From the NCBI RefSeq assembly GCF_056712565.1, contig NZ_CM160072.1: DNA of 64,000 bases; one strand, 5' to 3'. Each line of letters opens with the position of its first letter. Position 1 is the stretch's first letter. The notes under the pieces are model-generated. The model searched no databases and was not told the DNA's origin. It saw only the letters and a list, made by a program, of their open reading frames with translations. Below are positions 14,134 through 29,921 of the stretch, one piece after another. A program made the translations under genes and the position numbers.

Positions 14134-14170
14134 TGAGTATTAACGAGTCATTGTAAATTGCAGTACGATA

Positions 14171-14197
14171 ATGGCTTCCAGTACTGGAAGCCATTTT
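14171..14197. terminator. Perfect 24-bp palindrome (atggcttccagtactggaagccat) plus T-run; likely metE terminator
   Basis: Inverted repeat read directly in the sequence, 38 bp after the metE stop. Confidence 0.55.
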
Positions 14198-14301: not shown

Positions 14302-14562
14302 TTATTTATTCTCACGTTGCACGAGATTGTATCCCTTTTCACTAACGTGGTAGTGAGGCATAGACTTATGCCCGCTATCCTCAATAATAACCAAACCTTC
14401 GTTAGCTAATTTGTTAACAATATTAACAACATTACCGAATCCTGGTATTTGCCTTATGGATAGTGTGCGATCGAGATTCATCCAGTTCCAGTTTATATCT
14501 TTCTCAGTCATAACGTTCAGCACGTTAAGTTCATTTTTAGTGATCACGATATTCTGTACCAA
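14302..14562 (-). CDS. Putative immunity protein, copy 2 (86 aa)
   Basis: Paralogue of the adjacent 85-aa ORF (shared blocks NVL.VM.EKDI.W.WM.LDRTL.IR.IP.FGNV.NIV.KL...GLV); sits downstream of the toxin domain in AT-rich DNA. Confidence 0.6.
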   Translation of the reverse strand: MVQNIVITKNELNVLNVMTEKDINWNWMNLDRTLSIRQIPGFGNVVNIVNKLANEGLVIIEDSGHKSMPHYHVSEKGYNLVQRENK

Positions 14563-14621
14563 AATTGATGAGTATCTTATTGAAAGATCACAATGTAAAT
14601 CATGCTCCTGTAATGGCTGGA

Positions 14622-14879
14622 TCAGAAGAGGTTGTCTTGTTGTTCTTTGATAAGATTCAATCCATATTGAGAAACTCTGTAGCGTGGTTTAGAGTTGCCC
14701 TCACCATTTACGATATCAACCAACCCATGATTAACCAGCTTTGTTACGATATTCGCTACGTTGCCAAATTCTGGAATATTTCGTATAGCTAAAGTACGAT
14801 CCAGCACCATCCAGCTCCAGTCAATATCTTTCTCAGCCATAACTTTCAGCACGTTAAATTCAACTATCGTAATCGTCAT
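14622..14879 (-). CDS. Putative cognate immunity protein, copy 1 (85 aa)
   Basis: Start overlaps the stop of the upstream toxin-domain ORF by 4 bp (ATGA), the classic toxin-immunity arrangement. Confidence 0.65.
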   Translation of the reverse strand: MTITIVEFNVLKVMAEKDIDWSWMVLDRTLAIRNIPEFGNVANIVTKLVNHGLVDIVNGEGNSKPRYRVSQYGLNLIKEQQDNLF

Positions 14880-16009
14880 TTTTTTGCATCCGGATGAAAT
14901 AAGTCAGTATCTTTAATTTTAAAGTCTTCTAGAGTTGCAGTATGTGCATTATTCCATAATTCATATCCATCTAAACCATTCGGTTCACCTGTTTCCCATC
15001 CTAAATTACAATAACGCTGATACTCGCGGCATTCATGAGTATAGTAGTTCAGATCGTATTTTTCAGGAAGCAATTCTTTATTTGCTATTTTTTTTAGCCT
15101 TGAAATCATTACATCATTAGCTGGATCATGATCAAATCTGGAGATATGCTTTTCAACAATAGCGATACCTTCCCTATTGATTGTTACGCCATCTATCGTC
15201 AGGTTTTCTATTGGACCACCGGCAAGGTCGGGATTAAATGGTCTTCCTGATACTGCTCCTCTGGCTCCGAAATGCTCAAATGATTCCAAATCAGGGAATC
15301 TCATTCTTCCCAGAACAACTCCAGCAACTATTGAAGCACCAGCGATGAGTAACCCTTTGTTATCCATAACTTGATCGTAACCAGCAGGTGCATCTCCTCC
15401 CAACTTGTTTGCTGTTTCCCTGAATCCTTCGATATTCCCATTGTATATGCCGCCAGCAGCAAGCAGTCTGCCAACCGCTTTACTATTGAGTGTTTTGAGG
15501 CCATTATTATCTTTAGTTTTTTGCCGTGGTATAAACAGACGGTTGTAGTTATCGGGAAATGCCAAATGACTAAATTCAGTATTAGCAATCAGATGCCTGG
15601 AGAGTATATATTCATAACTGACAGTGATGGTTTCTGTATCCAGATTGTTCTCAGTAAACAGGTGATTGATTGCTGATAAGAGCGCGCCGCGGAGTTGAAT
15701 GTTGTAATATTTCTCCTATCGACCAAATCTATTGATCCGATAGAAGTCAAACTCCATGAACAACTGCTCGTTATTGTTAATAGCGTTAATAAGTAACGGG
15801 GAGCTTTTGTCAATCAACTTACAGAAACTAAGGCCATGTAATTGTGACCCTTTGCCTGTATTCGTAATACTATTAGATAGCGAGAACGCGAAGATTTCAT
15901 CTTCATGGCCAATCTGCCAGCGATTACCTATTGATGCGCTCGTTCCGCAACGAGAGGAAATACATCCTTGTTGTTCTCCGGTTATGGTCAGGTAAATTTC
16001 ATCACTCAT
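14876..16009 (-). pseudogene. Hcp-toxin fusion (Hcp-ET-like T6SS tube protein with C-terminal extension) interrupted by an in-frame TAG
   Basis: N-terminal 97 aa (MSDEIYLTITGEQQG...GHEDEIF...KLIDKSSPLL...FYRIN) are Hcp-like; an in-frame TAG at 15716-15718 is followed without further stops by an approx. 280-aa extension (frame checked codon by codon). The 229-aa C-terminal ORF 14876-15565 is the toxin-domain portion. Confidence 0.7.
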
Positions 16010-16493
16010 CTTTGATGAACTCTCTTTATTGCTTGATGTTTTAAAAATAAACAATATTGCTATTTGTTTATAATTATTTACTCCTCAAGTTAATGGATTT
16101 AAATATGGGAAATAAAATGTTTCACTTTAGACCAGTTTTCATGAGGAAAATCTGTAATCATTAATAATAAACATGAATATTTTGCAGTGATTAATATTTG
16201 TTATGAATATAATCTATAACAATGAAGAGTTATCAGTTGTTCGGTGTATAGCCAGAGACGAGTTCAGTTTGTGATTTTTACAGGGCAGTTACAGCCGCAA
16301 AATTTTATGGCTGATTTCACCTTCCCCTCAAGCTTATCTTTCTTAAAAAGAGAAATAATTCTTAAATTCAAATAGTTATATACAATCTACTCTCTTTCTT
16401 GTGACTAGCTTCACATTTCATACTGATGCATTGGAATGAAATAAAATTTCATGAGATTTTGTGTTTGAGAAAAATTATTTCATTAGGTGTGAA

Positions 16494-17051
16494 ATGGACG
16501 CAAAGCTGTACATCACTGAGATCATCAATGAATTAACCTTCGTTAAGGACTCTATCCGTGAGGATGACTGCACCAAATTGATCGACGCTATTCAGCAAAG
16601 CCAGCGCGTTTTCTGCTATGGCCTGGGGCGTGCCGGCTTTTCCATGAAAGCCTTCACCATGCGCCTGATGCATATGGGCAAAGAGGTTTACTTCCTGACG
16701 GAAACCATTACGCCGAACTTTGGGCCTGGCGATCTGTTTATCGTTTCTTCCGCTTCCGGTGAGACAGCACAACTGGTGGCACTGGCGAAAAAAGCACGTC
16801 AGTTTGGCGGCGCTGTGGCGGTGTTAACCACGAATCGACACGCCACTATCACCGAGTTTGTCGACGTCATCGTGCAAATCAATGCCCCTTCCAAAAATCA
16901 AAAAGATTCTGTTTTCCGCTCGGCACAGCCGATGGCGTCGTTGTATGAGCAAGCTTTGCTGGTGATTGCCGATGCATTAGTGATGAAGATGGCTGCTGAA
17001 AGCGGTGCGCCGGAAAGTGAACTGTTTAAGCGCCACGCCAATCTGGAATAG
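16494..17051 (+). CDS. SIS-domain sugar-phosphate isomerase (6-phospho-3-hexuloisomerase-like)
   Basis: About 185 aa from MDAKLYITEI; SIS signatures GLGRAG and SSASGET; first gene of the PTS operon. ORF track starts 11 codons upstream. Confidence 0.7.
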   Translation: MDAKLYITEIINELTFVKDSIREDDCTKLIDAIQQSQRVFCYGLGRAGFSMKAFTMRLMHMGKEVYFLTETITPNFGPGDLFIVSSASGETAQLVALAKKARQFGGAVAVLTTNRHATITEFVDVIVQINAPSKNQKDSVFRSAQPMASLYEQALLVIADALVMKMAAESGAPESELFKRHANLE

Positions 17052-17092
17052 TCGTCGCCGTTATTTGCTCGATACCCTACAGGAGAATAAAA

Positions 17093-18601
17093 ATGAGCAA
17101 AAAAATAACATCCTTGTTTAACTTCAAGAAGTTGCAGAAATTTTCTTCTGCTCTGATGTTACCAATCGCCATTCTTCCGGCGGCGGGTTTGATTTTAGCC
17201 ATCGGGATTTCATTTAACATTGAGCTGCTGGCGAATTGCGGCGGCCTGATTTTCGCCAACCTTCCTTTGCTGTTTTGTGTCGGTATTGTGATTGGCCTGA
17301 CAGGTGATGGTTCTTCATCACTTTCAGCGATTATCAGCTACATGATCATGAATGCCACGATGGGAACGCAACTTGGCATTACCGCGGAGTCCGTTGCAGC
17401 CAGTAACGGTGACTATGCGATGATCCTCGGGGTACCGACGTTACAAACGGGAGTGTTTGGCGGTTTGATTGTCGCCATCTTTGTTTATCTGCTCTATACC
17501 CGCTTCCACAATATTGAATTGCCTCAGTTTCTTGGTTTCTTCGGTGGAAAACGCTTTGTACCGATTATTACGGCGGTGGCGGCAATTATTGTCGGCTATT
17601 TATTGCCGTGGCTGTGGATACCGGTACAAAAAGGTCTGGCGTCGCTTTCAACGCTGGTGACCAGTGGGCATAACGCGAACTTCGCGGCCTTTATTTACGC
17701 CGTTGGCGAACGTTCGCTGATTCCTTTTGGCCTGCATCATATCTGGAACGTGCCGTTTTATTACAACTTTGGCGACTACATGACCAAATCCGGGCAACTG
17801 GTGACGGGCGATATTCCGGTGTTCTTTGCCCAATTGCGCGACGGTGTTCCGTTGACGGCGGGGTTGTTTATGACAGGTCGTTTCCCAATCATGATGTTTG
17901 CGTTACCTGCCGCCGCGTTGGCGATGTATCAGGAAGCAAAACCGGAACGTAAGGCGCTGATTAAAGGCCTTTTACTCTCCGGTGCGCTGACCACATTTGT
18001 TACCGGGATTACGGAGCCGCTGGAATATGCATTTTTGTTTGCAGCTCCGGTTCTCTACATCATTCACATCTTCTTATATGCCACTTCATTTGTGCTGATG
18101 AACATCCTGAATGTGCACATTGGTCATCCTTTTGCTGGCGGTCTTATTGATTTCGTACTGAATGGCGTTATGCCAAACCGCACGCCGTGGTATCTGGTGT
18201 TCCTGGCAGGCGCGGGCTATGCAGCGATTTACTACACCGTATTTCGGGTACTGATCCGCAAGTTGAATCTGAAAACACCGGGACGTGAGGATGAAGAGAT
18301 TGCCGTTGCAACCACATTAACGCGCGAAGAACGTCCATACCAAATCATCGAGGCAGTAGGTGGTTTCGACAATATCGAAGATGTGGATGCCTGCGCAACA
18401 CGCCTGAGGCTGGCGCTGGTAGACGATAAGAAAGTGAATGAAAAACGGCTGAAGGAGTTGGGGGCTGCGGGTTTAGTGAAACTGGGTGATGGCGGTGTAC
18501 AGGTGATATTTGGCGGCAAATCGCAAATCCTGCGCGACGAAATCAAAACCGTAATGAGCAGACCGCGCCCGACAGAAATGACAGTGGCCTGTGCTAACTA
18601 A
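17093..18601 (+). CDS. PTS glucose-family EIICB component
   Basis: 502 aa; EIIC motif GITEPLEYAFLF and C-terminal EIIB domain with phosphorylatable Cys in ACATRLRL. Confidence 0.8.
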   Translation: MSKKITSLFNFKKLQKFSSALMLPIAILPAAGLILAIGISFNIELLANCGGLIFANLPLLFCVGIVIGLTGDGSSSLSAIISYMIMNATMGTQLGITAESVAASNGDYAMILGVPTLQTGVFGGLIVAIFVYLLYTRFHNIELPQFLGFFGGKRFVPIITAVAAIIVGYLLPWLWIPVQKGLASLSTLVTSGHNANFAAFIYAVGERSLIPFGLHHIWNVPFYYNFGDYMTKSGQLVTGDIPVFFAQLRDGVPLTAGLFMTGRFPIMMFALPAAALAMYQEAKPERKALIKGLLLSGALTTFVTGITEPLEYAFLFAAPVLYIIHIFLYATSFVLMNILNVHIGHPFAGGLIDFVLNGVMPNRTPWYLVFLAGAGYAAIYYTVFRVLIRKLNLKTPGREDEEIAVATTLTREERPYQIIEAVGGFDNIEDVDACATRLRLALVDDKKVNEKRLKELGAAGLVKLGDGGVQVIFGGKSQILRDEIKTVMSRPRPTEMTVACAN

Positions 18602-18651
18602 TTCGAGATTAGCGGGCTGGTTTCAGCCCGCCAGACAGAGAGAGCTGAAGT

Positions 18652-20649
18652 ATGAATTCACAATTACTGGCTAACGCCATCCGAATGTTAAGTGTTGATG
18701 CGATCCAGAAAGCGAACTCCGGTCATCCGGGCGCGCCGATGGGGATGGCGGATATTGCCGAAGTGGTCTGGCGTCGTCACCTGCGTCATAACCCAAAAAA
18801 TCCGCAGTGGTTTAACCGCGACCGCTATATTCAGTCGAACGGGCACGGTTCCATGTTGATTTACGCTTTGCTGCATCTTACAGGCTACGACCTGTCGATG
18901 GATGATATTCGCGACTTTCGTCAGCTCCACTCCCGCACGCCAGGTCATCCAGAATATGGTTATACGCCGGGTGTTGAAACCACCACCGGCCCGTTGGGGC
19001 AGGGCGTAGCTAATGCGGTGGGGATGGCGATTGCGGAGAAGGCGCTGGCGGCAGAATTTAACAAACCGGGCTTTAATATTGTTGATCATCACACATGGCT
19101 ATTTTTGGGTGATGGCTGCCTGATGGAAGGGATCTCCCACGAGGCCTGTGGTCTTGCAGGAACGCTGAAGCTCGGCAATCTGATTGCTATCTGGGACGAT
19201 AACGGTATTTCGATCGATGGTCACGTAGAAGGCTGGTTTGCTGAAGATACGGCTGCCCGTTTTCGTGCCTACGGCTGGCATGTCATTGAAGGCGTTGATG
19301 GTCACGATCCAGAAGAGGTAGATGCTGCGGTGCGTGAAGCGAAAAGCGTCACGGATAAGCCCAGTCTGCTGTGCTGCAAAACGATTATCGGTTTTGGTTC
19401 GCCAAATAAAGCCAACAGCCACGATTGCCACGGCTCGGCGCTGGGTGCAGATGAAGTGGCGCTGGTGCGTGAACGTCTGCAATGGCCGTATGCCCCTTTC
19501 GAAATTCCTGGTGAAATTTATGCCGCATGGGATGCGACCGAGAAAGGCGCGCAGGTTCAACAGGAATGGGATGCACTGTTTGCTGACTACGCGAAGCAGT
19601 GGCCGGAACTGGCGGCGGAGTTTACTCGTCGCATGAAGGGTGATTTGCCTGCTGGCTGGGCCGAGAATATGCAGAAATATGTGCACGATCTGCAATCCCA
19701 TCCGGCGGCGCTGGCAACCCGTCAGGTCAGCCAGAAATGCCTCAATCACTTCGCGGATATGCTGCCGGAACTGATGGGCGGCTCGGCGGACTTGTCGCCC
19801 TCTAACCTGACTCGCCATCAGAAATCGGTTGATTTCACCGGGGAAAATCCGGCGGGGAATTACATCTCCTATGGCGTGCGTGAATTTGGTATGTCGGCCA
19901 TCATGAACGGTCTTGCGCTGCATGGTGGGTTTATCCCTTACGGCGGTACTTTCCTGATGTTTATGGAATATGCGCGTAATGCACTGCGCATGGCGGCGCT
20001 GATGAAGATCCGCTCGGTGTTTGTTTATACCCACGATACCATCGGCCTGGGCGAAGACGGCCCGACACATCAGCCCGTTGAGCAACTGGCGTCGCTGCGT
20101 CTGACGCCGAATATGGAAACCTGGCGCGGTTGCGATCAGGTGGAAGTGGCGGTAGCCTGGCAACAGGCGATTGAGCGCAAAGATGGCCCAACGTCGTTGG
20201 TATTAACGCGCCAACCTCTGGCGCAACAGCCGCGCACCGCTGCACAGTTGGCAGAGATTGCGCGTGGTGGTTATGTACTGAGTGATTGTGACGGTCAGCC
20301 TGAGATGATCCTCATTTCTGCGGGTTCAGAGATTGAGTTAGTGGTCAGCGCCGCAAAAGCGTTAACGGAAGAAGGGCGTAAAGTTCGCGTGGTTTCCATG
20401 CCGTGTACCGAGCGTTTCGATAATCAGGATGCGGCGTACAAAGAGTCGGTATTGCCAAAAGCTGTACGCAAACGTCTGGCGGTAGAAGCCAGCATCGCCG
20501 GATTCTGGGAACGCTACGTCGGCCTGGACGGTAAAGTGATCGGCATGACGAGCTTTGGTGAGTCTGCTCCGGCGAATGTGTTGTTCAAACACTTTGGTTT
20601 TACGCCGGAAAATGTCCTGGCGCAGGCGCGTGAGCTACTGAACAGCTAA
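18652..20649 (+). CDS. Transketolase (additional paralogue, TktA/TktB-like)
   Basis: 665 aa; N-terminus ...[18 protein letters not shown] and ThDP-binding GDGCLMEG motif; clearly homologous to TktA but in an accessory context. Confidence 0.85.
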
Positions 20650-20678
20650 ACCTGCACAAGGGGTGAAAGGATGACCTT

Positions 20679-21524
20679 TTACCCCTTGAAACGGGAGCCA
20701 AGAAACTCTTCACGGGTGCGGTATTTCTCGTAATGCGCCTTGTTTTTATACATAAACAACAGCACCAGCATATCAATAACGCCCATTGCCGGAACGCGAG
20801 TGGAGTCGAAGGCTTCAAAGAAGATTTTATCGCTGACCGCGGTATTGAGTTGATGGGTGGAGAGTTTTGATAACGGAGATTTAATATAGTTAGTGATACA
20901 AACGGATTTGGCACCGCGCTCTTTCACCACTTTAAAGATATCGACCATTAAGTTGGTGCTGCCAGAGTTAGAAATACCAATCGCCAGGTCACGTTTCCCC
21001 ATAGAATATGCCGCATTAATTTGCATTTCCGGGCTGACGTGAACAACGGTTTTTAATCCGAGTTGGCTGAATTTATAAGCACCATAAACGGCCAGAGGGT
21101 TTGAATTTCCGGCAGCAAAAAAGAAAATAGTGTCGCAATTAGCAAGTAGTTTGAGAATGGACTCAAGCACTTCGGCATTAAAAAATTGCGTTGATTGTAT
21201 TAAATCTTCGGCCTGTTTTTTTAATAAAAATGTGGCCAGCGACGTTATATCGGTAAAATCGGTATTATCAGGATAGCTATTGTCAGGATTAATGACTTCT
21301 TTTGCTAATGCAATTTTTAAATGGTAATAACCCTGATAACCTAATTTCTTACAGGTGCGTACGATAGTCGCTTCACTGGCATGGCTTTTTTCTGATAGTT
21401 CAGTGACACTATAGTTCACGACTTCATGTGCGTGGCTAAGAATATAGTCAGCGACCTTTTTTTCCGCCTGATGCAGTGTAGGGTAATTGCTTTGAATCAG
21501 ACTTTTTACGGTTATGTTATTCAT
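20679..21524 (-). CDS. RpiR/MurR-family regulator (HTH + SIS)
   Basis: 281 aa; N-terminal HTH (LSEKSHASEATIVRTCKKLGYQGY) and C-terminal SIS domain; convergent with the PTS-transketolase operon. Confidence 0.8.
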   Translation of the reverse strand: MNNITVKSLIQSNYPTLHQAEKKVADYILSHAHEVVNYSVTELSEKSHASEATIVRTCKKLGYQGYYHLKIALAKEVINPDNSYPDNTDFTDITSLATFLLKKQAEDLIQSTQFFNAEVLESILKLLANCDTIFFFAAGNSNPLAVYGAYKFSQLGLKTVVHVSPEMQINAAYSMGKRDLAIGISNSGSTNLMVDIFKVVKERGAKSVCITNYIKSPLSKLSTHQLNTAVSDKIFFEAFDSTRVPAMGVIDMLVLLFMYKNKAHYEKYRTREEFLGSRFKG

Positions 21525-21724
21525 AATTAGTAAATTTCATTCTGACAGAAAGTGCTGATTATAACATAGTTTTCAGGCGTGGATAGGTGTGAAAAAAATG
21601 AAGGTGTGCAGTGAACGTAATGATTAACAGACCGGTTAATTTTCATGAATTACGTCAACTGCACAAAAATAATTTAAACGGGTGCTCTAATTAAAGCAAA
21701 ACTTATATTTTTATCATTGTATTG

Positions 21725-22630
21725 TCAATTAAATACAAATTGTGTCATTAATTGTGGGTTTCTTAAATATTCTATGCACCACTGACAGGCTTTGCCCATA
21801 CCATCGGAACGAGCGGCAAGAAATAACTTGGTGGCGTGTTTATGTTCGCGCATTGGCTTTTTAAGCAATTTACCGCTGTTCAATAACGGCAATGCCAGAT
21901 GATGTGGAATATAACCAATACCGACGTTTTGTTCTATTAAGGCGATTGCCGTAGCGAAGTCAGGAACAAAAATGGGTTTTTGTCCTTCCAACAACCAGGC
22001 TTGCATCGGGGGGAAGTTAACGGAGGTATCGCGGATACAAATCGCTGGATAGTGACGCAATTCACTGTTTTCTAATGGATGCCGCTTCGCTGCCAGTGGG
22101 TGGAGTGGGCTGACGACAAAATCCCATTCCATTTGTCCGACCGGTTCGCTAATGATGCCTTCACTGCTTGGTACTGCATGAGGAGCACCGTAGACCAGAT
22201 CAGCACGCTTACTGTACAGCGCATCCCAGCAGCCGTTGTATACCTCAAGATCTACCGTCAGTGTTGTTGATGTGAATTGCCGTTCAAAATCTCGAATAAA
22301 TGCCACCAGCAAATCACCAGGAATAATATTGTTCACCGCAATTGTCAGTTCACGCTCAATACCATCGTGAATCAGCACTGTGTTGCGCTTTAATGCTTCC
22401 AGGTCGCCAAGAATAGTTTTGCTATGTTCGATGAAGTAACTTCCCGCTGGCGATAATTCAATATAGCGTCCCTTACGAATGAACAGTTCAACGCCCAGGC
22501 TCTCTTCCGCTTTCTTGATGGTGTAACTGATGGCGGAAGGGACTTTATTTAACTGCTCGGCTGCGGTGGTAATGCTCTGGTGTCTGGCGACCAGATGAAT
22601 AACACGAAGCGTTTCGTCTGAGATGAACAT
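21725..22630 (-). CDS. LysR-family transcriptional regulator
   Basis: 301 aa; N-terminal HTH (ITTAAEQLNKVPSAISYTIKKAEESLGVELF); immediately downstream of the catabolic operon. Confidence 0.8.
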   Translation of the reverse strand: MFISDETLRVIHLVARHQSITTAAEQLNKVPSAISYTIKKAEESLGVELFIRKGRYIELSPAGSYFIEHSKTILGDLEALKRNTVLIHDGIERELTIAVNNIIPGDLLVAFIRDFERQFTSTTLTVDLEVYNGCWDALYSKRADLVYGAPHAVPSSEGIISEPVGQMEWDFVVSPLHPLAAKRHPLENSELRHYPAICIRDTSVNFPPMQAWLLEGQKPIFVPDFATAIALIEQNVGIGYIPHHLALPLLNSGKLLKKPMREHKHATKLFLAARSDGMGKACQWCIEYLRNPQLMTQFVFN

Positions 22631-22707
22631 AAGGCTCCCTGGTCAGTGGTAAAGTGGCTGAATCTCTCCAGATTCAGCCGTAATCATTGCCTGAGTATAC
22701 CCAGGAA

Positions 22708-23931
22708 TTAGCGGTGTTGACTTGCCCGACTGAGAATCGCATACGCGATACATGCCACCAGAATCGAGTCTACCGAAGGGATCGTCGTCAGGGTGAATAA
22801 GCCTTTTACGGTCATAAAGCCAACCGCTGCGCCTATGATCCATGCTGCGAATGTCAGCACTTTAATCTGTGACTCCTGGGCTAACACTGACTCTTGATAG
22901 CCATTACGGCGATAAAGGAAAAAGTCAGCGATATAAATTCCGGCAACGGGTGGCGTGGCGATACCCAGGAACAGCAGAAACGGAATAAACCACGCCATAA
23001 TATCCATACTGCCTACGATGGCGGAAAGGATACCCAGCGCCACGGTAATCTGCCATTTGGGAAAGCGGGTAAGCAGTGTGGAAACCACCAGCGTGCCCTG
23101 GAACATATTGCCCGCGTTACCGGTGACGCAGGCGAAAATCAACAACAGCGCCGCAGGCAGAACCGCACCGAATACCGCCATCGCACCCAGTAAAGATCCC
23201 TGACCACTAATGGCGCTCGGCGTTGCACCCGCCCAGTAGAGCAGAGGGTAGGCAACCAGAAACGTCACGCCTGCGGCAATCAGCGCATGTTTGCGGTTAT
23301 GCACAAAACTACCGAAATCAGGCAGTGTGGCAACCAGCACAATAATGGTGCCAACAACGGTGGAAACGGCGACACCTGTATTCATCTCCACAATCGCCGC
23401 TGGTACTGCCACTTCGGTATGGGTTGCCACATAGAGGATGTAACACAGCACCAGCGCGATAACCGGCACGGCAACCTGGGCAATTTTTCCCAGAACGGCA
23501 AAGCCAAATGCCGTAGAGGCGACAAAAATGACACAGCCAGCCGCCACTAACAGTGCCAGTGGAACTTCCAGTCCATGTTGAGCCAGTAAGTCATGTACCG
23601 AATGACCAAACATATTGGCGGTAACGGCAATCCAGCCGAACAGACTTATCGCCATCAAAATGTTAATGGCGATGGCCCCTTTTTCGCCAAACGAATATTT
23701 CACAATGCCATACGTTGGCAGGCGGGCTTTTTCTCCCACGCTAATGGTGATGGCTGAAAGTAAGGTCAGAATGACGCCGCCTAACAATACGACGCTAATT
23801 AAACTGCCGCTGGAAAGTTGATTGCCGAGGCTTGAGGATGACAACAGCACAGGTGTGACGGCAATACCCAGCAAAATCATGGCAATACGCAATCCTGATG
23901 CCGTATTCAGATTCTCTTCTTTTTTACGCAT
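22708..23931 (-). CDS. NCS1-family (CodB-like) permease
   Basis: 407-aa polytopic membrane protein with CodB-like architecture; assignment by pattern only. Confidence 0.6.
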   Translation of the reverse strand: MRKKEENLNTASGLRIAMILLGIAVTPVLLSSSSLGNQLSSGSLISVVLLGGVILTLLSAITISVGEKARLPTYGIVKYSFGEKGAIAINILMAISLFGWIAVTANMFGHSVHDLLAQHGLEVPLALLVAAGCVIFVASTAFGFAVLGKIAQVAVPVIALVLCYILYVATHTEVAVPAAIVEMNTGVAVSTVVGTIIVLVATLPDFGSFVHNRKHALIAAGVTFLVAYPLLYWAGATPSAISGQGSLLGAMAVFGAVLPAALLLIFACVTGNAGNMFQGTLVVSTLLTRFPKWQITVALGILSAIVGSMDIMAWFIPFLLFLGIATPPVAGIYIADFFLYRRNGYQESVLAQESQIKVLTFAAWIIGAAVGFMTVKGLFTLTTIPSVDSILVACIAYAILSRASQHR

Positions 23932-23956
23932 AGTATGTTCCCTTTATAAATGCGCG

Positions 23957-24346
23957 TTACACAGTATGAAAATGCCCGGTGTATTTGCGCCAGCTACCCA
24001 GTTCTGTAATTTCCCGTTGGCCTTCGGTCAGCCAGTTTTCTGCCAGTACGCCCAGCACTTCGCTACCATCGGCAAGTTTGATTTTGCCAATTGCCAGCCC
24101 AGCGGGTTCGCTCATTAACAGAGCGGCAAAACTGGCCAGCGGTAATTGCCAAATTTCTACGTCGACGTGTGTTCCTCCTTCATTCACGCGAATCATTCCC
24201 GGATGGCGATCATTAATACTCCACAACCGGTAATGGGCGTCAGTTCGGTCTTCACGGACAAAAATACCGCCCGCTTTTTGCATATTTGGGTTGAGTTCCA
24301 GGCCGCGCATCAGCGTTCCGTTAACGGCTAAAAGCGTTGTAGTCAT
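23957..24346 (-). CDS. AIG2/gamma-glutamyl-cyclotransferase-like protein
   Basis: 129 aa; N-terminus LLAVNGTLMRG resembles the GGCT/AIG2 fold start; assignment tentative. Confidence 0.5.
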   Translation of the reverse strand: MTTTLLAVNGTLMRGLELNPNMQKAGGIFVREDRTDAHYRLWSINDRHPGMIRVNEGGTHVDVEIWQLPLASFAALLMSEPAGLAIGKIKLADGSEVLGVLAENWLTEGQREITELGSWRKYTGHFHTV

Positions 24347-24362
24347 TGTGTTCTCCAGAGAA

Positions 24363-25319
24363 TTAAAGGGTTATCCATGTACCGCTCTGATGCGCCAGGG
24401 CTGCTTTTATGGTTTGCGGTGAAGTAATCAGGCCGCTGGCCTGTTTGCCTTGTTGCTGGCTGGCATTGATGAAATCAACAATGGCTTCCACTTTGGGTTG
24501 CATACTGCCGACACCAAACTGACCTTCCCGCAACAGCGTTTGCGCTTCGGCAACGCTGATAGCGTCGAGCCACTGTTGTTGTGGTGTACCAAAGTTAATC
24601 GCTACTTTTTCTACACCGGTGGGGATCACCAGCAGATCTGCGCCTAACTGACTGGCGAGCAGCGCGGAGGCCAGATCTTTATCGATCACGGCTTCTACAC
24701 CTTTCAGTTGTTGCCCGTCTCGCACCACCGGAATACCGCCGCCGCCGCAGGCAATAACCAGATATCCCTGGCGCACCAGGTGAGCGATGGTGTCGTGCTC
24801 AATAATTTCCAGTGGTGCAGGAGAGGGAACTGTACGCCGCCAACCACGCCCGGCGTCCTCCATCAGCGTCCAGCCGAGTTGTTGTTGGCGTTGTTGGGCC
24901 GTTGCTTCATCGAGAAACGCGCCAATTGGTTTACTGGGGCTGGCGAAAGCATCGTCATGTGGGCTGACTCGCGTTTGTGTCACCAGGGCAATTACCGGTT
25001 TGTTTATGCCACGGCGAGCCAATTCGTTATGCAGCGCTTTCTGGAACATGTAGCCAATTGCACCTTGTGTATCACCCACGGCGTAATCAAGTGGAACCGG
25101 AGAAACTTCGTTACTGGCGAGTTCAGAGCGGCGCAGAATAAAGCCCACCTGCGGGCCATTACCGTGGGTTAGTACCAGGTCCCATCCGGCTTCAACCATA
25201 TCAACGATATGTTGCACGCTTTCCATCACTGCAACATATTGATCGGGAATACTATTGCGTTGCTCGTCCTGAATGAGCGCATTGCCGCCAACCGCGACGA
25301 CAGCCAGTGGCTTAACCAT
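24363..25319 (-). CDS. Carbamate kinase-like protein
   Basis: From MVKPLAVVAVGGNAL...; amino-acid kinase fold with ACGGGGIPVV motif; ORF-track start is a spurious upstream extension. Confidence 0.8.
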   Translation of the reverse strand: MVKPLAVVAVGGNALIQDEQRNSIPDQYVAVMESVQHIVDMVEAGWDLVLTHGNGPQVGFILRRSELASNEVSPVPLDYAVGDTQGAIGYMFQKALHNELARRGINKPVIALVTQTRVSPHDDAFASPSKPIGAFLDEATAQQRQQQLGWTLMEDAGRGWRRTVPSPAPLEIIEHDTIAHLVRQGYLVIACGGGGIPVVRDGQQLKGVEAVIDKDLASALLASQLGADLLVIPTGVEKVAINFGTPQQQWLDAISVAEAQTLLREGQFGVGSMQPKVEAIVDFINASQQQGKQASGLITSPQTIKAALAHQSGTWITL

Positions 25320-26736
25320 GATGGTTCTCCTTTGCGACGATCTCCGCCAGTGCACGTACAGCGGCGACAAAACAGGCCATCGGCGCAGTGGTGATCCCGG
25401 CACCAATTTGCCCGACCCCCGCTTGTTTGTGGGCGATACCCGTATTGATGACCGGTAAAATGCCGCGATCGGTCACTTTACGCGCATCAATTCCTGCTGC
25501 GGTGGGGGCAAAATTGAGGGCTGGAAGTGTAAATGCGGGGTTACCGCCGAGGGTGATGGCTTGCATCCGACGGCTGTTATTGGTGGCATCGGCAGGGGTG
25601 CCTCCCACAAATTTGACGATCGCCGGAGACGACGCCATCGCGAAGCCACCCATACCTGCGGTTTCAGTAATTGCGCTATCACCCAGGTCAGCAGCAGCGT
25701 CGTCAACGCCAAATCCGGGGAAGAACAGACCTTCAACGGCATTGGCAGGAGCCTGGAACCAGCGATCGCTAGTACCGGAAAGCCGAATACCAAAACTCAC
25801 CCCGTTACGCGCCATCACCGTAACCATTGAACTGAACGGTACATTGGCGGCGGCATCCATCATTGCTTTACAGGCGGCCATCGACAGATTGAGGAAGAAG
25901 TGATCGTTACCGGTGATAAATGCCACGACGCGCTGGATATGTTCCTGTGGAAGAGAGCAGGCCAGCAATGCCGGGAGCAGGCGCTTAATCAGCAAACCGG
26001 TAGCGGCAGCATTGCGGTTATGAACTTCATCCCCCATATGCAGCGCCTGCGCCATTAATGGCTTGAGTTCCAGCTCGCCGTGTTGTGCGATTGCTGCTTT
26101 CATTGCCGGCGCCAGTTCATCGCGCATCCAGGCCAGACGATTGAGAACTTCATCGTTATTGGCGCCAAAACGGAGAACCTTACCCAGACCTTCATTGAAA
26201 TTGCTAAAAGTACGATGGCCGTTGGTTTTGTTTTCTACCACCCATAACGGCATCGACGGGCTGATGATGCCTGCCATTGGGCCAACCGCGTGATAATGAT
26301 GACAAGGGGCAAGGTCGATTTCGCCTGCGTTTATTTGGTTTTCAGCGTCTTGCTGGCTGGTGGCCCAACCTTCGTACAGCATGGCACCAATAATCGCCCC
26401 TTTTACCGGACCACACATCTCTTCCCAGGCAATCGGCGGGCCAGAGTGCAAAATACGTTTTTGTTCAGCCATTGCTGGAATGGCCTCTTTAGCGAGCATG
26501 ACATCCACCAGCATGGGCTGTGCTTCGAGATAACGTGTCATGGCGATTTGGTTGGCATTTTCTACCAGGGGATGACGTAGCAACGATGCCAGATCCAATC
26601 CAGCGTCAATATCGCCTTGTGCTGGTGGCTGCCAGTTGAGTGCAATTGCGCTTCCCCCGGCATGTTGAATATTGTCAGCAAAACTGTGTAGTCCCGCGTT
26701 CACAACCTTCAAAGGCTGATTAAATAAGGTATTCAT
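25312..26736 (-). CDS. YlbE-like (DUF1116) protein
   Basis: About 474 aa from MNTLFNQPL; start overlaps the fdrA-like stop by 4 bp; paralogous to the K-12 allantoin-region ylbE. Confidence 0.7.
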   Translation of the reverse strand: MNTLFNQPLKVVNAGLHSFADNIQHAGGSAIALNWQPPAQGDIDAGLDLASLLRHPLVENANQIAMTRYLEAQPMLVDVMLAKEAIPAMAEQKRILHSGPPIAWEEMCGPVKGAIIGAMLYEGWATSQQDAENQINAGEIDLAPCHHYHAVGPMAGIISPSMPLWVVENKTNGHRTFSNFNEGLGKVLRFGANNDEVLNRLAWMRDELAPAMKAAIAQHGELELKPLMAQALHMGDEVHNRNAAATGLLIKRLLPALLACSLPQEHIQRVVAFITGNDHFFLNLSMAACKAMMDAAANVPFSSMVTVMARNGVSFGIRLSGTSDRWFQAPANAVEGLFFPGFGVDDAAADLGDSAITETAGMGGFAMASSPAIVKFVGGTPADATNNSRRMQAITLGGNPAFTLPALNFAPTAAGIDARKVTDRGILPVINTGIAHKQAGVGQIGAGITTAPMACFVAAVRALAEIVAKENHHG

Positions 26737-28292
26737 GCGTTTAGCCCCTTTTTCTGCAACTGAGTCTGTGCAACGGTGCTGGCCCATAGCGCCGCCTGTG
26801 CATTGCTGCTGGCGATGATGACCCCTGCATTTTGTAGTGCTCTTATCTGCTGACTGCGTATTTGCGGATCAGCTTCCGTTCCGCAAACGTGCGCAATCAG
26901 CAACGGTGCGTTATTCATGTCGATGTGTGAAAGTTGGTCCAGTAATTCGCTGGCAGGCGCCGTGGAAGCGCCATAACCAAGTACCAGGTCGAATAACACG
27001 ACGGCAGTGTGTGAGTCGTTGAGTTCGTTGAGCAGACGTTGATTGCGCAGAGTCGGGTCGATCATTGGATGCGGTTTGCCACGGGTGAAATCATCGTCGC
27101 CCATATCGATCAACGTGTGATCTTCGCTTTGCCAGATATTTGCCAGAGCACGATTACCCGCAACTGGCGTATTGGAAGCTGCGCTGAATCCCTTTTGTTG
27201 GCAGATAAGTTGCGCTTCGTAGCAGAAGGTTCCTCCGGCGAAAACACCGCGTATCGCCTGGCGATGGGCTGGCAGGCGCTGACAGGCGTTTTGTAACATT
27301 GTGAGATCGGCGCAGGAAATCTCGGTCTCGACAGCCGGAAGTGGCTGAGCATTCAGTAACGCTACGGCGATATTTGCGGCGCTGGCAAGTGTGGTGGCCG
27401 CGGTGATATTGGGACGTGCCAGATCATGCGGATTCGCACCGAGGAAATTCACCACCACGGGTTTTCCACAAGCCTCGGCGCGCTCCAGAATAGTCTGGGC
27501 AACGATCGGTGAAGGCGGTTTTGAAATCAGCACAATCACGCGAGTTTCATCGTCTTGCGCCAGCGCATCTAAAGCGAAGAGCATCGATATTCCACCAATC
27601 TCTTCACTGAGATCATGCCCACCGGTTCCCAACGCCTGAGAAATACCCGCTCCGAGCTGGTCGATTCGGCAAGTCACTTCCTGTAGCCCGGTGCCTGACG
27701 CGCCAATAACACCAATTGCTCCGCGTTTCACCACATTAGCGAAGCCTAACGGAATGCCGTTAACAATGGCGGTTCCACAGTCAGGTCCCATTACGATGCG
27801 CTGACGTTCTCGGGCAAGCGTTTTGATAGATTTTTCCTGCCCGATACTGACGTTATCGCTGAACATCATCACGTTCATTCCGAGGTTTAACGCTTTAATT
27901 GCTTCGGCGGCGGCGTAGTCTCCCGGTACAGAAATGAGTGCCAGGTTGGCTTCGGGTTCGGCTTCCAGTGCCATTTCCAGGCTGACCTTTTCCGGTGTTT
28001 TAATGCCACTATCCGTTTCATCATCGGGTTTGCTGGTCAGACGTTGCTGGGCCAGTACCAGTGCTTCATTGCAAATATCTTCTTCACCCATGACTGCAAT
28101 CACTAAATCATTGGGACTGGCGTTGATTTCGTTACCCAGACCCGCATCGCGCAATTGTTCGAGATTATTGGGCGTTCCCATGACGACCGAGGCCTGTTGA
28201 ATACCGGGCAACTTGCTGATTTGCGCGGAAATCTGCATCAGAGAAACTGAGTCCTGATAAAGATTACTGAAAACTTTATATTTAACTTTCAT
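26733..28292 (-). CDS. FdrA-like protein (CoA-binding, succinyl-CoA-synthetase-alpha-like)
   Basis: 519 aa; resembles FdrA of the K-12 allantoin region. Confidence 0.75.
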   Translation of the reverse strand: MKVKYKVFSNLYQDSVSLMQISAQISKLPGIQQASVVMGTPNNLEQLRDAGLGNEINASPNDLVIAVMGEEDICNEALVLAQQRLTSKPDDETDSGIKTPEKVSLEMALEAEPEANLALISVPGDYAAAEAIKALNLGMNVMMFSDNVSIGQEKSIKTLARERQRIVMGPDCGTAIVNGIPLGFANVVKRGAIGVIGASGTGLQEVTCRIDQLGAGISQALGTGGHDLSEEIGGISMLFALDALAQDDETRVIVLISKPPSPIVAQTILERAEACGKPVVVNFLGANPHDLARPNITAATTLASAANIAVALLNAQPLPAVETEISCADLTMLQNACQRLPAHRQAIRGVFAGGTFCYEAQLICQQKGFSAASNTPVAGNRALANIWQSEDHTLIDMGDDDFTRGKPHPMIDPTLRNQRLLNELNDSHTAVVLFDLVLGYGASTAPASELLDQLSHIDMNNAPLLIAHVCGTEADPQIRSQQIRALQNAGVIIASSNAQAALWASTVAQTQLQKKGLNA

Positions 28293-28386
28293 GCTGTTAC
28301 GCCTGTTTCATTCCGCCCGATAGCAAAATTCGGGCAAAGCATCCCCGTGTAGCCCCATAAACGGGCTACGGGAGAAAAGGTTGAAA

Positions 28387-29247
28387 TCAATTCATGGTGT
28401 TCAGGGTTCGAAAGCCATGCAGCATTCCTGCAAGGCAATCTACTCCTGACGTTGCGCCAAATTGCATGACCTGTTCTGCACAGGATGCGATTGTCATTGC
28501 CGATGCGCTCCCAACCAGTTGTGCGAGTAACTGGCAAATCGGTTCTGAAAAATGTCCCTGAAGCGCACGCTCCAGATAATGACGACTGATATCCGTGGTG
28601 TTGTGCGCATGTTGATCAATTGCCTGCTGCAACCGGTATTGATGATCGGCAAGTGGTGCAGGGAGTTGCCATAACCAGAGCGCTGCCAGATAGCCCAACA
28701 AATAGTCATCTCCATCGGGCGTTAAGCCTTTACCAAAGCCGATCAGTTGTGGCACCTGGCGTTCCAGCGCATCTGGATGCTCCATAATTGCTAATCCCTG
28801 GTGCGTGAGACTATCCGGCAGGTGCAATGTGCTTTGAACGTTATGTTCCAGACAAAATAAAAGCCGTTGCGATGCCATCGTTGGGTAGTGCTGGAAAACC
28901 AAAGGGAATGCCTCAAGTGTCAGCATTCTCCCCACAAATGGCGACTGCCAGAGCGTTGCGTTTTCGAGCGCCACACAAAATCGAGGTGTCCGCAGTAAGC
29001 CTTGGGTTAACTGAATGGGATCTGAATGGGCAATCTCTCTTCGCCAGTCCCAACATTCAGGTAGCCAGACTCTGGCAGCATCAGGGAGATTCAGATACGT
29101 TTGCGCACACAACAGAGTGATGAATGTTCCCGCGTCTGAATACAGATTTACCGCATGTTTAAAAGCGCTATGTAGACGTAAATCTTGCGTTTCATTCTGC
29201 GGGAAAAGATATCCCAACGACGATGCGCAAAGCGTAACCTGTACCAT
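28387..29247 (-). CDS. YlbF-like (DUF2877) protein
   Basis: 286 aa; position and size consistent with the third member of the FdrA/YlbE/YlbF triad; family call by context. Confidence 0.55.
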   Translation of the reverse strand: MVQVTLCASSLGYLFPQNETQDLRLHSAFKHAVNLYSDAGTFITLLCAQTYLNLPDAARVWLPECWDWRREIAHSDPIQLTQGLLRTPRFCVALENATLWQSPFVGRMLTLEAFPLVFQHYPTMASQRLLFCLEHNVQSTLHLPDSLTHQGLAIMEHPDALERQVPQLIGFGKGLTPDGDDYLLGYLAALWLWQLPAPLADHQYRLQQAIDQHAHNTTDISRHYLERALQGHFSEPICQLLAQLVGSASAMTIASCAEQVMQFGATSGVDCLAGMLHGFRTLNTMN

Positions 29248-29252
29248 CGGCG

Positions 29253-29921
29253 TTAGCCTTCCAGACCTGCAATAATGGCTTTGGAATCAGTAACCCAACC
29301 GAAAATGGCACCTTGTGCTTTGATCATCTCGAGGGCGTATTTCTGGAATTCCGGGAAATAGGAGCCGACACAATCTTCCGGGATAATGCATTCATAGCCA
29401 CGATCATTTGCTTCGCGCACGGTGGTGGTTACGCAAACTTCGGTTGTTACACCACAAACTATCAGCGTCTTGATACCGTGGTTTTGCAAAATCAGATGTA
29501 AGTCGGTTTGATAAAACGCGCCTTTGCCAGGCTTATCAATCACCGGTTCGCCTGCCACCGGGTACAGTTCAGGAATGATGTCATGACCTGCTTCACCTCT
29601 GACCAGAATGCGTCCCATCGGTCCTGGTTCACCAATAAAGGTTTTTCCGCCGCGCGTCAGTTTGGCTGGCGGGCAGTCGCTTAAGTCTGCACGATGGCCT
29701 TCACGAGTATGAATAACCATAATTCCTTTTTGACGTGCGGCTGCCAGCACCTCTGTACATGGTGCGATAGCCGTGCGTACCAGTGAAACATCATTGCCCA
29801 GAGCCTCACCGAAGCCCCCTGCTTCGACAAAGTCACGCTGCATGTCGATCATGACCAGTGCAGTTGTGCGCGGATCAAAAGGTAATTCAAAGGGTTGAGC
29901 CTGAAAAATGGATTGCGTCAT
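29253..29921 (-). CDS. Isochorismatase-family cysteine hydrolase (RutB-like amidohydrolase)
   Basis: 222 aa; motifs ALVMIDMQ, LIVCGVTTEVCVTTT and AIFGWVTD parallel the RutB catalytic triad regions; first gene of the operon. Confidence 0.8.
   Translation of the reverse strand: MTQSIFQAQPFELPFDPRTTALVMIDMQRDFVEAGGFGEALGNDVSLVRTAIAPCTEVLAAARQKGIMVIHTREGHRADLSDCPPAKLTRGGKTFIGEPGPMGRILVRGEAGHDIIPELYPVAGEPVIDKPGKGAFYQTDLHLILQNHGIKTLIVCGVTTEVCVTTTVREANDRGYECIIPEDCVGSYFPEFQKYALEMIKAQGAIFGWVTDSKAIIAGLEG

Follow-up and report, generated by a model that had tools for sequence, protein, structure and literature searches.

A pair of old, diverged immunity-like genes behind a disrupted Hcp-toxin fusion gene in Escherichia coli, with predicted protection against two toxin alleles

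The analysed stretch of DNA (the window) comprises 64,000 nucleotides (nt) of contig NZ_CM160072.1 from the RefSeq assembly GCF_056712565.1. Two small genes at positions 14,302 to 14,879, here called imm1 and imm2, follow the remnant of a gene encoding Hcp, the tube protein of type VI secretion systems (T6SS), fused to a C-terminal toxin domain (Hcp-ET). The locus is an orphan Hcp-ET effector–immunity island with metE on one side and ysgA on the other. The best explanation of the data as a whole, with a probability of roughly 75%, is that imm1 acts as immunity to the toxin of this island (allele A), imm2 acts as immunity to attackers with another toxin allele (B), and the effector itself has been disabled. 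This reading is drawn from sequence relationships, gene order and allele structure. The genes concerned are as follows (aa, amino acids; ORF, open reading frame; PGAP, Prokaryotic Genome Annotation Pipeline).

14622..14879, minus strand: imm1, 85 aa, ATG start, predicted cognate immunity gene of toxin allele A, WP_000156431.1 "hypothetical protein" (ORF, ATGA overlap and homologues).
14302..14547, minus strand: imm2, 81 aa, GTG start, WP_001298603.1, orphan paralogue here (ORF, BLASTP and orthologue alignment).
14876..16009, minus strand: Hcp-ET (tssD with C-terminal toxin), 377 codons, pseudogene here (single-frame translation and PGAP "internal stop").
15716..15718, minus strand: in-frame TAG in place of Trp98, which is TGG in intact alleles (translation and allele comparison).
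15569..16009, minus strand: Hcp domain, T6SS tube protein, aa 1-147 (TIGR03344 and PF05638).
15302..15517, minus strand: conserved linker before the toxin domain, aa 165-236, including a hydrophobic stretch rich in Gly and Ala (common to toxins with other C-terminal domains).
14879..15301, minus strand: C-terminal toxin domain, aa 237-377, predicted four-helix (homologue search and AlphaFold2).

The initial annotation had described two ORFs sharing long conserved blocks, well above half of the positions by eye. Both ORFs lie at these positions, and BLASTP confirmed the estimate, aligning imm1 with imm2 without gaps at 46 of 80 identical residues (58%, E 8e-31). The tblastn search of the window with imm1 revealed no copies besides these two. 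The ORF of imm2 can be extended to a TTG codon at 14562 (14302-14562, 86 aa), and the start was set at GTG 14547 because PGAP uses this codon and because the orthologue from other strains has its ATG opposite it in the alignment. The ATG of imm1 (14879-14877) and the TGA of the upstream frame (14878-14876) share an ATGA overlap at 14879-14876. The coupling of imm1 to a toxin ORF through this overlap, as first proposed, was therefore retained, whereas the free-standing 229-aa toxin gene was not. The 229-aa ORF (14876-15565, TTG start) is in frame with the Hcp ORF at 15716-16054, and one TAG alone divides them; translation of 14876-16054 in a single frame passes through the Hcp domain, the linker and the toxin tail with one stop. 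Thus, the true gene is the 377-codon Hcp-toxin fusion at 14876-16009, of which the 229-aa ORF is the tail behind the TAG.

Two alleles of the island were found in E. coli. The Hcp-ET gene of allele B (e.g., strain SCU-102) equals that of allele A for approximately the first 800 nt and diverges over the last 300 nt or so, with a synonymous divergence (dS) of 0.006 for codons 1-267 and 0.78 for codons 268-377. The two toxins differ in just their last ~95 residues, the differences falling after residue ~54 of the tail, and the ratio of nonsynonymous to synonymous divergence (dN/dS) between the tails is 0.26. Allele B carries a single immunity gene of 81 aa, immB, which overlaps the toxin stop by 11 nt. 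Imm2 is identical to immB of SCU-102 at 71 of 81 residues (~88%, dN/dS 0.39), and imm1 is ~59% identical to it. Compared with B, the A locus contains the other toxin tail and ~320 extra nt (imm1 and the spacer), after which imm2 realigns at ~95% DNA identity. By an estimate made from identity bands and not by a gene-by-gene count, approximately 730 genomes are A-type and 100-120 are B-type. A fossil of the allele-B toxin tail was also sought in the spacer between imm1 and imm2; it gave a weak local alignment only (score 29) and was rejected as evidence for a simple insertion.

On these alignments, imm1 is most likely the cognate immunity gene of the allele-A toxin. As allele B has no immunity gene but the overlapping orthologue of imm2, imm2 is most likely a retained immunity gene to allele B and not a recent duplicate, which specifically supports the earlier suggestion that the pair may protect against related toxins of competitors. 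The dS between imm1 and imm2 is 1.58 (dN/dS 0.21), so the split is old and the pair did not arise by recent tandem duplication; this dN/dS, like that between imm2 and immB, indicates purifying selection. Moreover, their differences cluster in the wing and the C-terminal helix, where 11 of 30 residues are identical, against 35 of 51 before it. Judged from these comparisons, the two genes go back to different alleles and not to a fresh duplication.

The association of toxin and small gene is conserved in other genera. Lonsdalea, Enterobacter sp. Bisph1 and Pantoea agglomerans carry the same toxin domain (77-82% identical) on an N-terminus other than Hcp, and in all three an imm homologue overlaps the toxin stop by 4 nt. 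Likewise, the very next gene behind three distant toxin homologues (a PAAR protein, an Rhs protein and a 473-aa protein, ~45-50% identical) encodes a protein of 79-91 aa matched by the imm hidden Markov model (HMM). The E-values at these three loci were 6.5e-12, 5.3e-6 and 3.9e-5, other neighbouring ORFs gave no match, and at the PAAR locus the overlap with the toxin stop is again 4 nt.

Members of the family also occur away from this toxin. In Citrobacter (comparison loci L014 and L016), they end strings of immunity genes behind Hcp-ETs with other, HNH-type tips, and in Kosakonia (L022), one stands behind a colicin-D-type toxin. Copies without any toxin were found in Brenneria, Kosakonia sp. 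S29, Cronobacter and Pseudescherichia (L006, L017, L019 and L021). Tandem imm pairs without a toxin are present in Cronobacter (L006, 5001-5511) and Pseudescherichia vulneris (L019, 3935-4601), the pairs being ~38% identical to each other; therefore, the two-gene layout recurs in other genera without the effector. In E. coli CFSAN061768 (L005, 2748-4000), an IS1 insertion sequence stands in place of the Hcp-ET gene and of the 5' part of imm1, and imm2 is intact; the remnant of imm1 is named by PGAP as a truncated "MarR family transcriptional regulator". Module conservation, the joint replacement of tail and small gene between alleles and these orphan copies make an immunity role well supported at the level of sequence and gene order. 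The initial annotation of the pair as duplicated immunity genes of a polymorphic toxin locus thus holds as to their predicted role, with the refinement that the tandem duplication is not a recent one.

The effector of the window is disrupted. The region is 100% identical to phylogroup-B2-type E. coli chromosomes (e.g., APEC O1, S88, ATCC 11775 and EV36), where RefSeq annotates "tssD, pseudogene, internal stop" followed by the two "hypothetical proteins" WP_000156431.1 and WP_001298603.1. An intact 377-aa gene is present in E. coli WCHEC4533, EcPF40, ChlosBP-23-1 and AREA_492. Both Hcp models, TIGR03344 (E 2.8e-36) and PF05638, match aa 1-147 of the intact allele, and the locus of EcPF40 is 99.8% identical to the window over 1781 nt, with both small proteins exactly the same. 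Exact matching of a 61-mer found the TAG form in 256 complete genomes and the TGG form in 235, a count that covers 491 of the ~846 Hcp-carrying genomes, the rest of which differ elsewhere within the 61-mer. Since the toxin gene is a pseudogene in the strain of the window, imm1 and imm2 are both functionally orphan there. A split Hcp-ET, in ORFs of 81 and 335 aa, likewise occupies the equivalent locus of Citrobacter sp. FP75 (L014, 2144-3397), which suggests that inactivation of such effectors recurs.

The toxin domain belongs to a large family. An exhaustive HMMER search with the last 141 aa retrieved 463 representative clusters at E<=1e-3, in proteins of 138 to 5214 aa, and 130 of the 136 full-domain matches end no more than 38 residues from the C-terminus. 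The carriers include Hcp, Rhs, PAAR, LysM and pyocin-like proteins, many with a pyocin-S translocation domain; one distant homologue with a PAAR motif is encoded directly after VgrG and DcrB genes. The pyocin-S translocation domain is tied to toxins, chiefly nucleases, that act in the cytoplasm (PMC9040868), and a cytoplasmic target is for this reason predicted for the present domain as well. Across 68 diverse sequences, eight residues never vary (R256, H288, D319, H325, E326, E329, W352 and H356, full-length numbering), which suggests a metal-dependent enzyme. Taken together, the domain is probably a metal-dependent enzyme with cytoplasmic action. AlphaFold2 gave a confident four-helix model (predicted local distance difference test, pLDDT, of 93). 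Two assignments were tried and rejected: a papain-like toxin, as the Cys of the "THECRE" motif is not conserved and the family has HELRE, and an HNH toxin, as no HNH profile matched.

The linker before the toxin domain is shared more widely. Approximately 31% of the query is common to proteins bearing Colicin_D, DUF6883 and PF26362, and the linker is also present in Citrobacter and Kosakonia toxins. The other tips that it precedes include Colicin D, DUF6883 and HNH-type domains. Two uncharacterised PHROG families match aa 171-236. The linker may serve for membrane entry or for the exchange of tips. A different N-terminal domain of ~145 aa, PF26362 (precomputed Pfam), carries the same linker and toxin in Lonsdalea (L011, 3958-4392), Pantoea, Enterobacter and Kosakonia; the AlphaFold database (AFDB) label "DUF8093 domain-containing" on a 380-aa Citrobacter toxin homologue may denote this PF26362 domain.

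No known immunity-protein family, for which the initial annotation had proposed a search, was matched by the small proteins: nothing rose above noise for imm1 or imm2 in Pfam, NCBIfam, PADLOC or PHROGs. Imm1 had no Pfam match even at E<=10, imm2 matched only MipZ at E 0.046, and the best NCBIfam match reached 14.5 bits against a cut-off of 90. The single-sequence search returned 163 homologues and the profile search 287; those listed with a source name are all from Enterobacterales and 79-105 aa long, and a precomputed Pfam domain is present on 0 of the 120 listed among the 287 family members. A search of the profile against PDB sequences revealed no real relative, grazing a MarR chain at E 0.014.

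The fold was predicted from a fused AlphaFold2 model of the toxin tail, a flexible linker and imm1. Its predicted template modelling score (pTM) was 0.75 with 41 of 256 residues disordered, a value that, read from the pTM alone, would be expected if tail and imm1 pack together. The imm1 part was modelled as helix-strand-helix-helix-strand-strand-helix, and its best Foldseek matches in PDB were PadR/MarR winged-helix proteins (E 0.01-0.09, template modelling score ~0.55-0.6 on the target), which are weak but consistent. The "MarR" name given by NCBI therefore reflects the fold, and the proteins form a family with a predicted winged helix that has so far gone unrecognised. The proteins are approximately half the size of MarR, with 81-85 aa and one helix after the wing, and the isoelectric point (pI) of the family is near neutral (median 6.3). 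They also differ from the colicin/pyocin Im class: no Colicin_Pyocin or other Pfam model matched, and the predicted fold is a winged helix and not the four-helix Im fold.

From these data, we infer a scheme of toxin activity, T6SS dependence, binding, neutralisation and specificity. Where the gene is intact, the Hcp domain would bring its C-terminal toxin into the T6SS tube for delivery into neighbouring bacteria, where the C-terminal domain would then damage a cytoplasmic target. Imm1, translated by coupling at the ATGA, would bind and block the C-terminal domain of the toxin, shielding the producer and its kin. The allele-A toxin tail together with imm1 would have taken over the site by recombination, and imm2, kept behind them, would guard against allele-B attackers. 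In the B2 lineage of the window, the change of TGG to TAG at codon 98 has disabled the effector, so that imm1 and imm2, if expressed, would be purely defensive orphans.

Several observations weigh against this interpretation. T6SS core genes are absent from the window. Neither Pfam nor NCBIfam had a model for the toxin domain, solved structures, searched also with a PDB profile, gave it no significant match, and the Pfam scan of the intact 377-aa protein returned T6SS_HCP alone. The correlation of toxin and imm identities over 10 pairs (Mantel r 0.97, p 2e-4), which speaks for co-divergence, is inflated by shared ancestry and by three distant outliers. Many homologues of imm bear the NCBI name "MarR family transcriptional regulator", others "hypothetical protein", and the predicted winged-helix fold is compatible with a DNA-binding role. 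Finally, imm2 has a GTG or TTG start without a clear Shine-Dalgarno sequence and is uncoupled from any toxin gene; as the coupling has been lost and the start signals are of this kind, expression of imm2 is uncertain, and it is the weakest link of the proposed mechanism.

The name and the fold raise the possibility that the small proteins are winged-helix transcription factors that regulate the Hcp-ET operon or other genes and do not neutralise the toxin. The H-b-H-H-b-b-H topology, the PadR/MarR matches in Foldseek, the weak profile match to the MarR chain and weak matches to Lrs14/Sta1 all point in this direction. However, no Pfam or NCBIfam regulator model matched at threshold, the additional helices by which MarR proteins of 140-150 aa dimerise are missing here (the PadR matches are ~100-110 aa long), and the pI of the family is near neutral. 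The gene also follows one toxin domain whether its carrier is Hcp, PAAR, Rhs or another protein, overlaps its stop codon and is exchanged between alleles together with the tail of the toxin. A pure regulator is not expected to be kept as an orphan behind unrelated toxins either, and we regard this explanation as quite improbable. A related idea is that these winged-helix proteins of 81-90 aa form an immunity family that has gone unrecognised under the automatic annotation as MarR, directed against a toxin with no recognisable fold relative and a new enzymatic activity on Hcp, PAAR, Rhs and S-type pyocin carriers, and that they might also bind DNA and autoregulate in the manner of toxin–antitoxin systems; in this full form, it is speculative and rather unlikely.

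The remaining alternatives concern the presence of two genes behind a dead effector. Imm2 could be a redundant or dosage duplicate, with both proteins neutralising the allele-A toxin, as there is a precedent of three immunity copies behind Hcp-ET3-4 of UTI89 (PMC6730261) and imm1 and imm2 resemble each other fairly well over their N-terminal two-thirds (35 of 51 residues). The old divergence, concentrated in the wing and the C-terminal helix, and the finding that allele B, with a toxin that departs from A in just the last ~95 residues, has the imm2 orthologue and no other immunity gene, are instead the signature of separate specificities; cross-protection may still occur, and a pure dosage role seems unlikely. 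It could also be argued that both genes are decaying leftovers, neither expressed nor selected, and intact because the nonsense mutation is recent. The internal stop in the toxin gene and the weak start signals of imm2 fit this, and so does the identity of both proteins with those of the B2 strain whose toxin is intact, which means that too little time has elapsed to show selection. Yet the family has been kept repeatedly without a toxin in Cronobacter, Pseudescherichia, Brenneria and Kosakonia, imm2 is intact in CFSAN061768, where IS1 removed the toxin and part of imm1, and dN/dS among alleles is below 1, all of which makes mere decay very improbable. Least probable of all, and extremely so, is an addiction-like retention in which reinitiation after the TAG would yield a non-secreted 229-aa toxin fragment and imm1 would stay essential as its antitoxin. 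A 229-codon open frame with a TTG start does lie 3' of the stop, and UniProt holds models of the fragment from UTI89 and APEC O1; against this, no ribosome-binding site is evident at the TTG, production of the fragment is only hypothetical, and CFSAN061768 tolerates that IS1 removed the toxin region and, with it, the 5' part of imm1.

Returning to imm1 and imm2 as immunities to two alleles, the closest system among those described in the reviews PMC6730261 and PMC6099711 is that of the Hcp-ET effectors and ETI immunity proteins (Ma et al. 2017, Virulence 8:1189, as presented in these reviews). The locus resembles it in the fusion of Hcp to a C-terminal toxin, in its position away from T6SS clusters and in the small immunity gene(s) directly downstream. 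UTI89, a close relative of the strain of the window, carries Hcp-ET3-4 at aroP-pdhR with three "bacteriocin immunity protein" genes, and according to the summary in PMC6730261, all three duplicated genes contribute to neutralisation. The Hcp parts of the two proteins are 67% identical, but BLASTP aligned aa 1-171 only and revealed no similarity in the toxin region; by Pfam profile search, the toxin tip of the window falls in none of the five published clans ET1-ET5. In contrast to the immunity genes of Hcp-ET3-4, which RefSeq names "bacteriocin immunity proteins", those of the window have a predicted winged helix, and the second gene corresponds to another allele and is not a near-identical copy.

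Orphan immunity genes are known at Rhs, contact-dependent inhibition (CDI) and T6SS loci, as outlined for Serratia Rhs orphans (PMC10539506) and the Bacteroidales orphan Tdi (PMC10470768). As far as these accounts describe them, they share with imm2 the position of an immunity gene without its own toxin downstream of a resident effector–immunity pair and a predicted action against non-self toxins, and, like them, imm-family members also occur in arrays behind unrelated toxins. Unlike the orphans in these accounts, no remnant of a displaced toxin tail was detected between imm1 and imm2, and the resident toxin is also inactivated. The locus likewise recalls the pairs of nuclease colicins or S-type pyocins and Im proteins, since the toxin domain occurs on pyocin-S-domain proteins and a small immunity gene lies directly downstream. 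It departs from them in a toxin domain that resembles none of the known colicin/pyocin DNase, rRNase or tRNase domains in sequence or fold, in the predicted winged-helix fold of the immunity protein and in delivery, which would be by Hcp and the T6SS and not by receptor-mediated uptake. With the MarR/PadR regulators, imm1 and imm2 have in common the predicted fold and the NCBI name of many homologues; half the MarR length, the lack of a family HMM match, the near-neutral pI and the genomic behaviour of an immunity gene set them apart.

Counted by this Hcp, the island is present in 846 of 5426 complete E. coli genomes (~15%), and its carriers include major extraintestinal pathogens as well as Nissle 1917. 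A metabolic block of ~13.4 kb (window 16494-29921) separates the Hcp-ET gene from ysgA in the lineage of the window and contains hxlB, a ptsG-like phosphotransferase system (PTS) gene, tkt, RpiR and LysR regulators, a cytosine permease, arcC, fdrA and a cysteine hydrolase. The neighbour of the Hcp-ET gene in WCHEC4533, SCU-102 and others is ysgA itself. Two further features lie around imm2.

14571..14599, minus strand: promoter-like TTTACA-17-GATACT in the spacer between imm1 and imm2, a weak lead (consensus scan).
14170..14195, both strands: hairpin of 11 bp, a perfect 26-nt palindrome between the convergent metE and imm2.

In the consensus scan, promoter-like sites of the region did not exceed the shuffle expectation, and TTTACA-17-GATACT is the sole promoter candidate for imm2. 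The spacer (window 14571-14640) also contains AGGAG followed, after one base, by an 8-codon mini-ORF, ATGATTTACATTGTGATCTTTCAATAA. The hairpin has a fold energy of -19.6 kcal/mol on the plus strand and -17.7 kcal/mol on the minus strand (z -3.9 and -5.3, respectively), with a U-run 3' of it on the metE strand only. Read from its sequence and position, it is probably a terminator shared by the convergent metE and imm2 transcripts.

The arrangement of the locus is the textbook layout of a polymorphic toxin, with toxin and immunity families that are both uncharacterised. With two toxin alleles and one or two genes for immunity, the locus is a clean natural setting for the study of antagonism at the level of strains, in which a common lineage has lost the weapon and kept both shields. 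A systematic mis-annotation also comes to light in this family, since hundreds of its "MarR family regulators" behave like immunity genes. The locus further draws attention to a widespread, uncharacterised toxin domain with eight invariant residues suited to mutagenesis.

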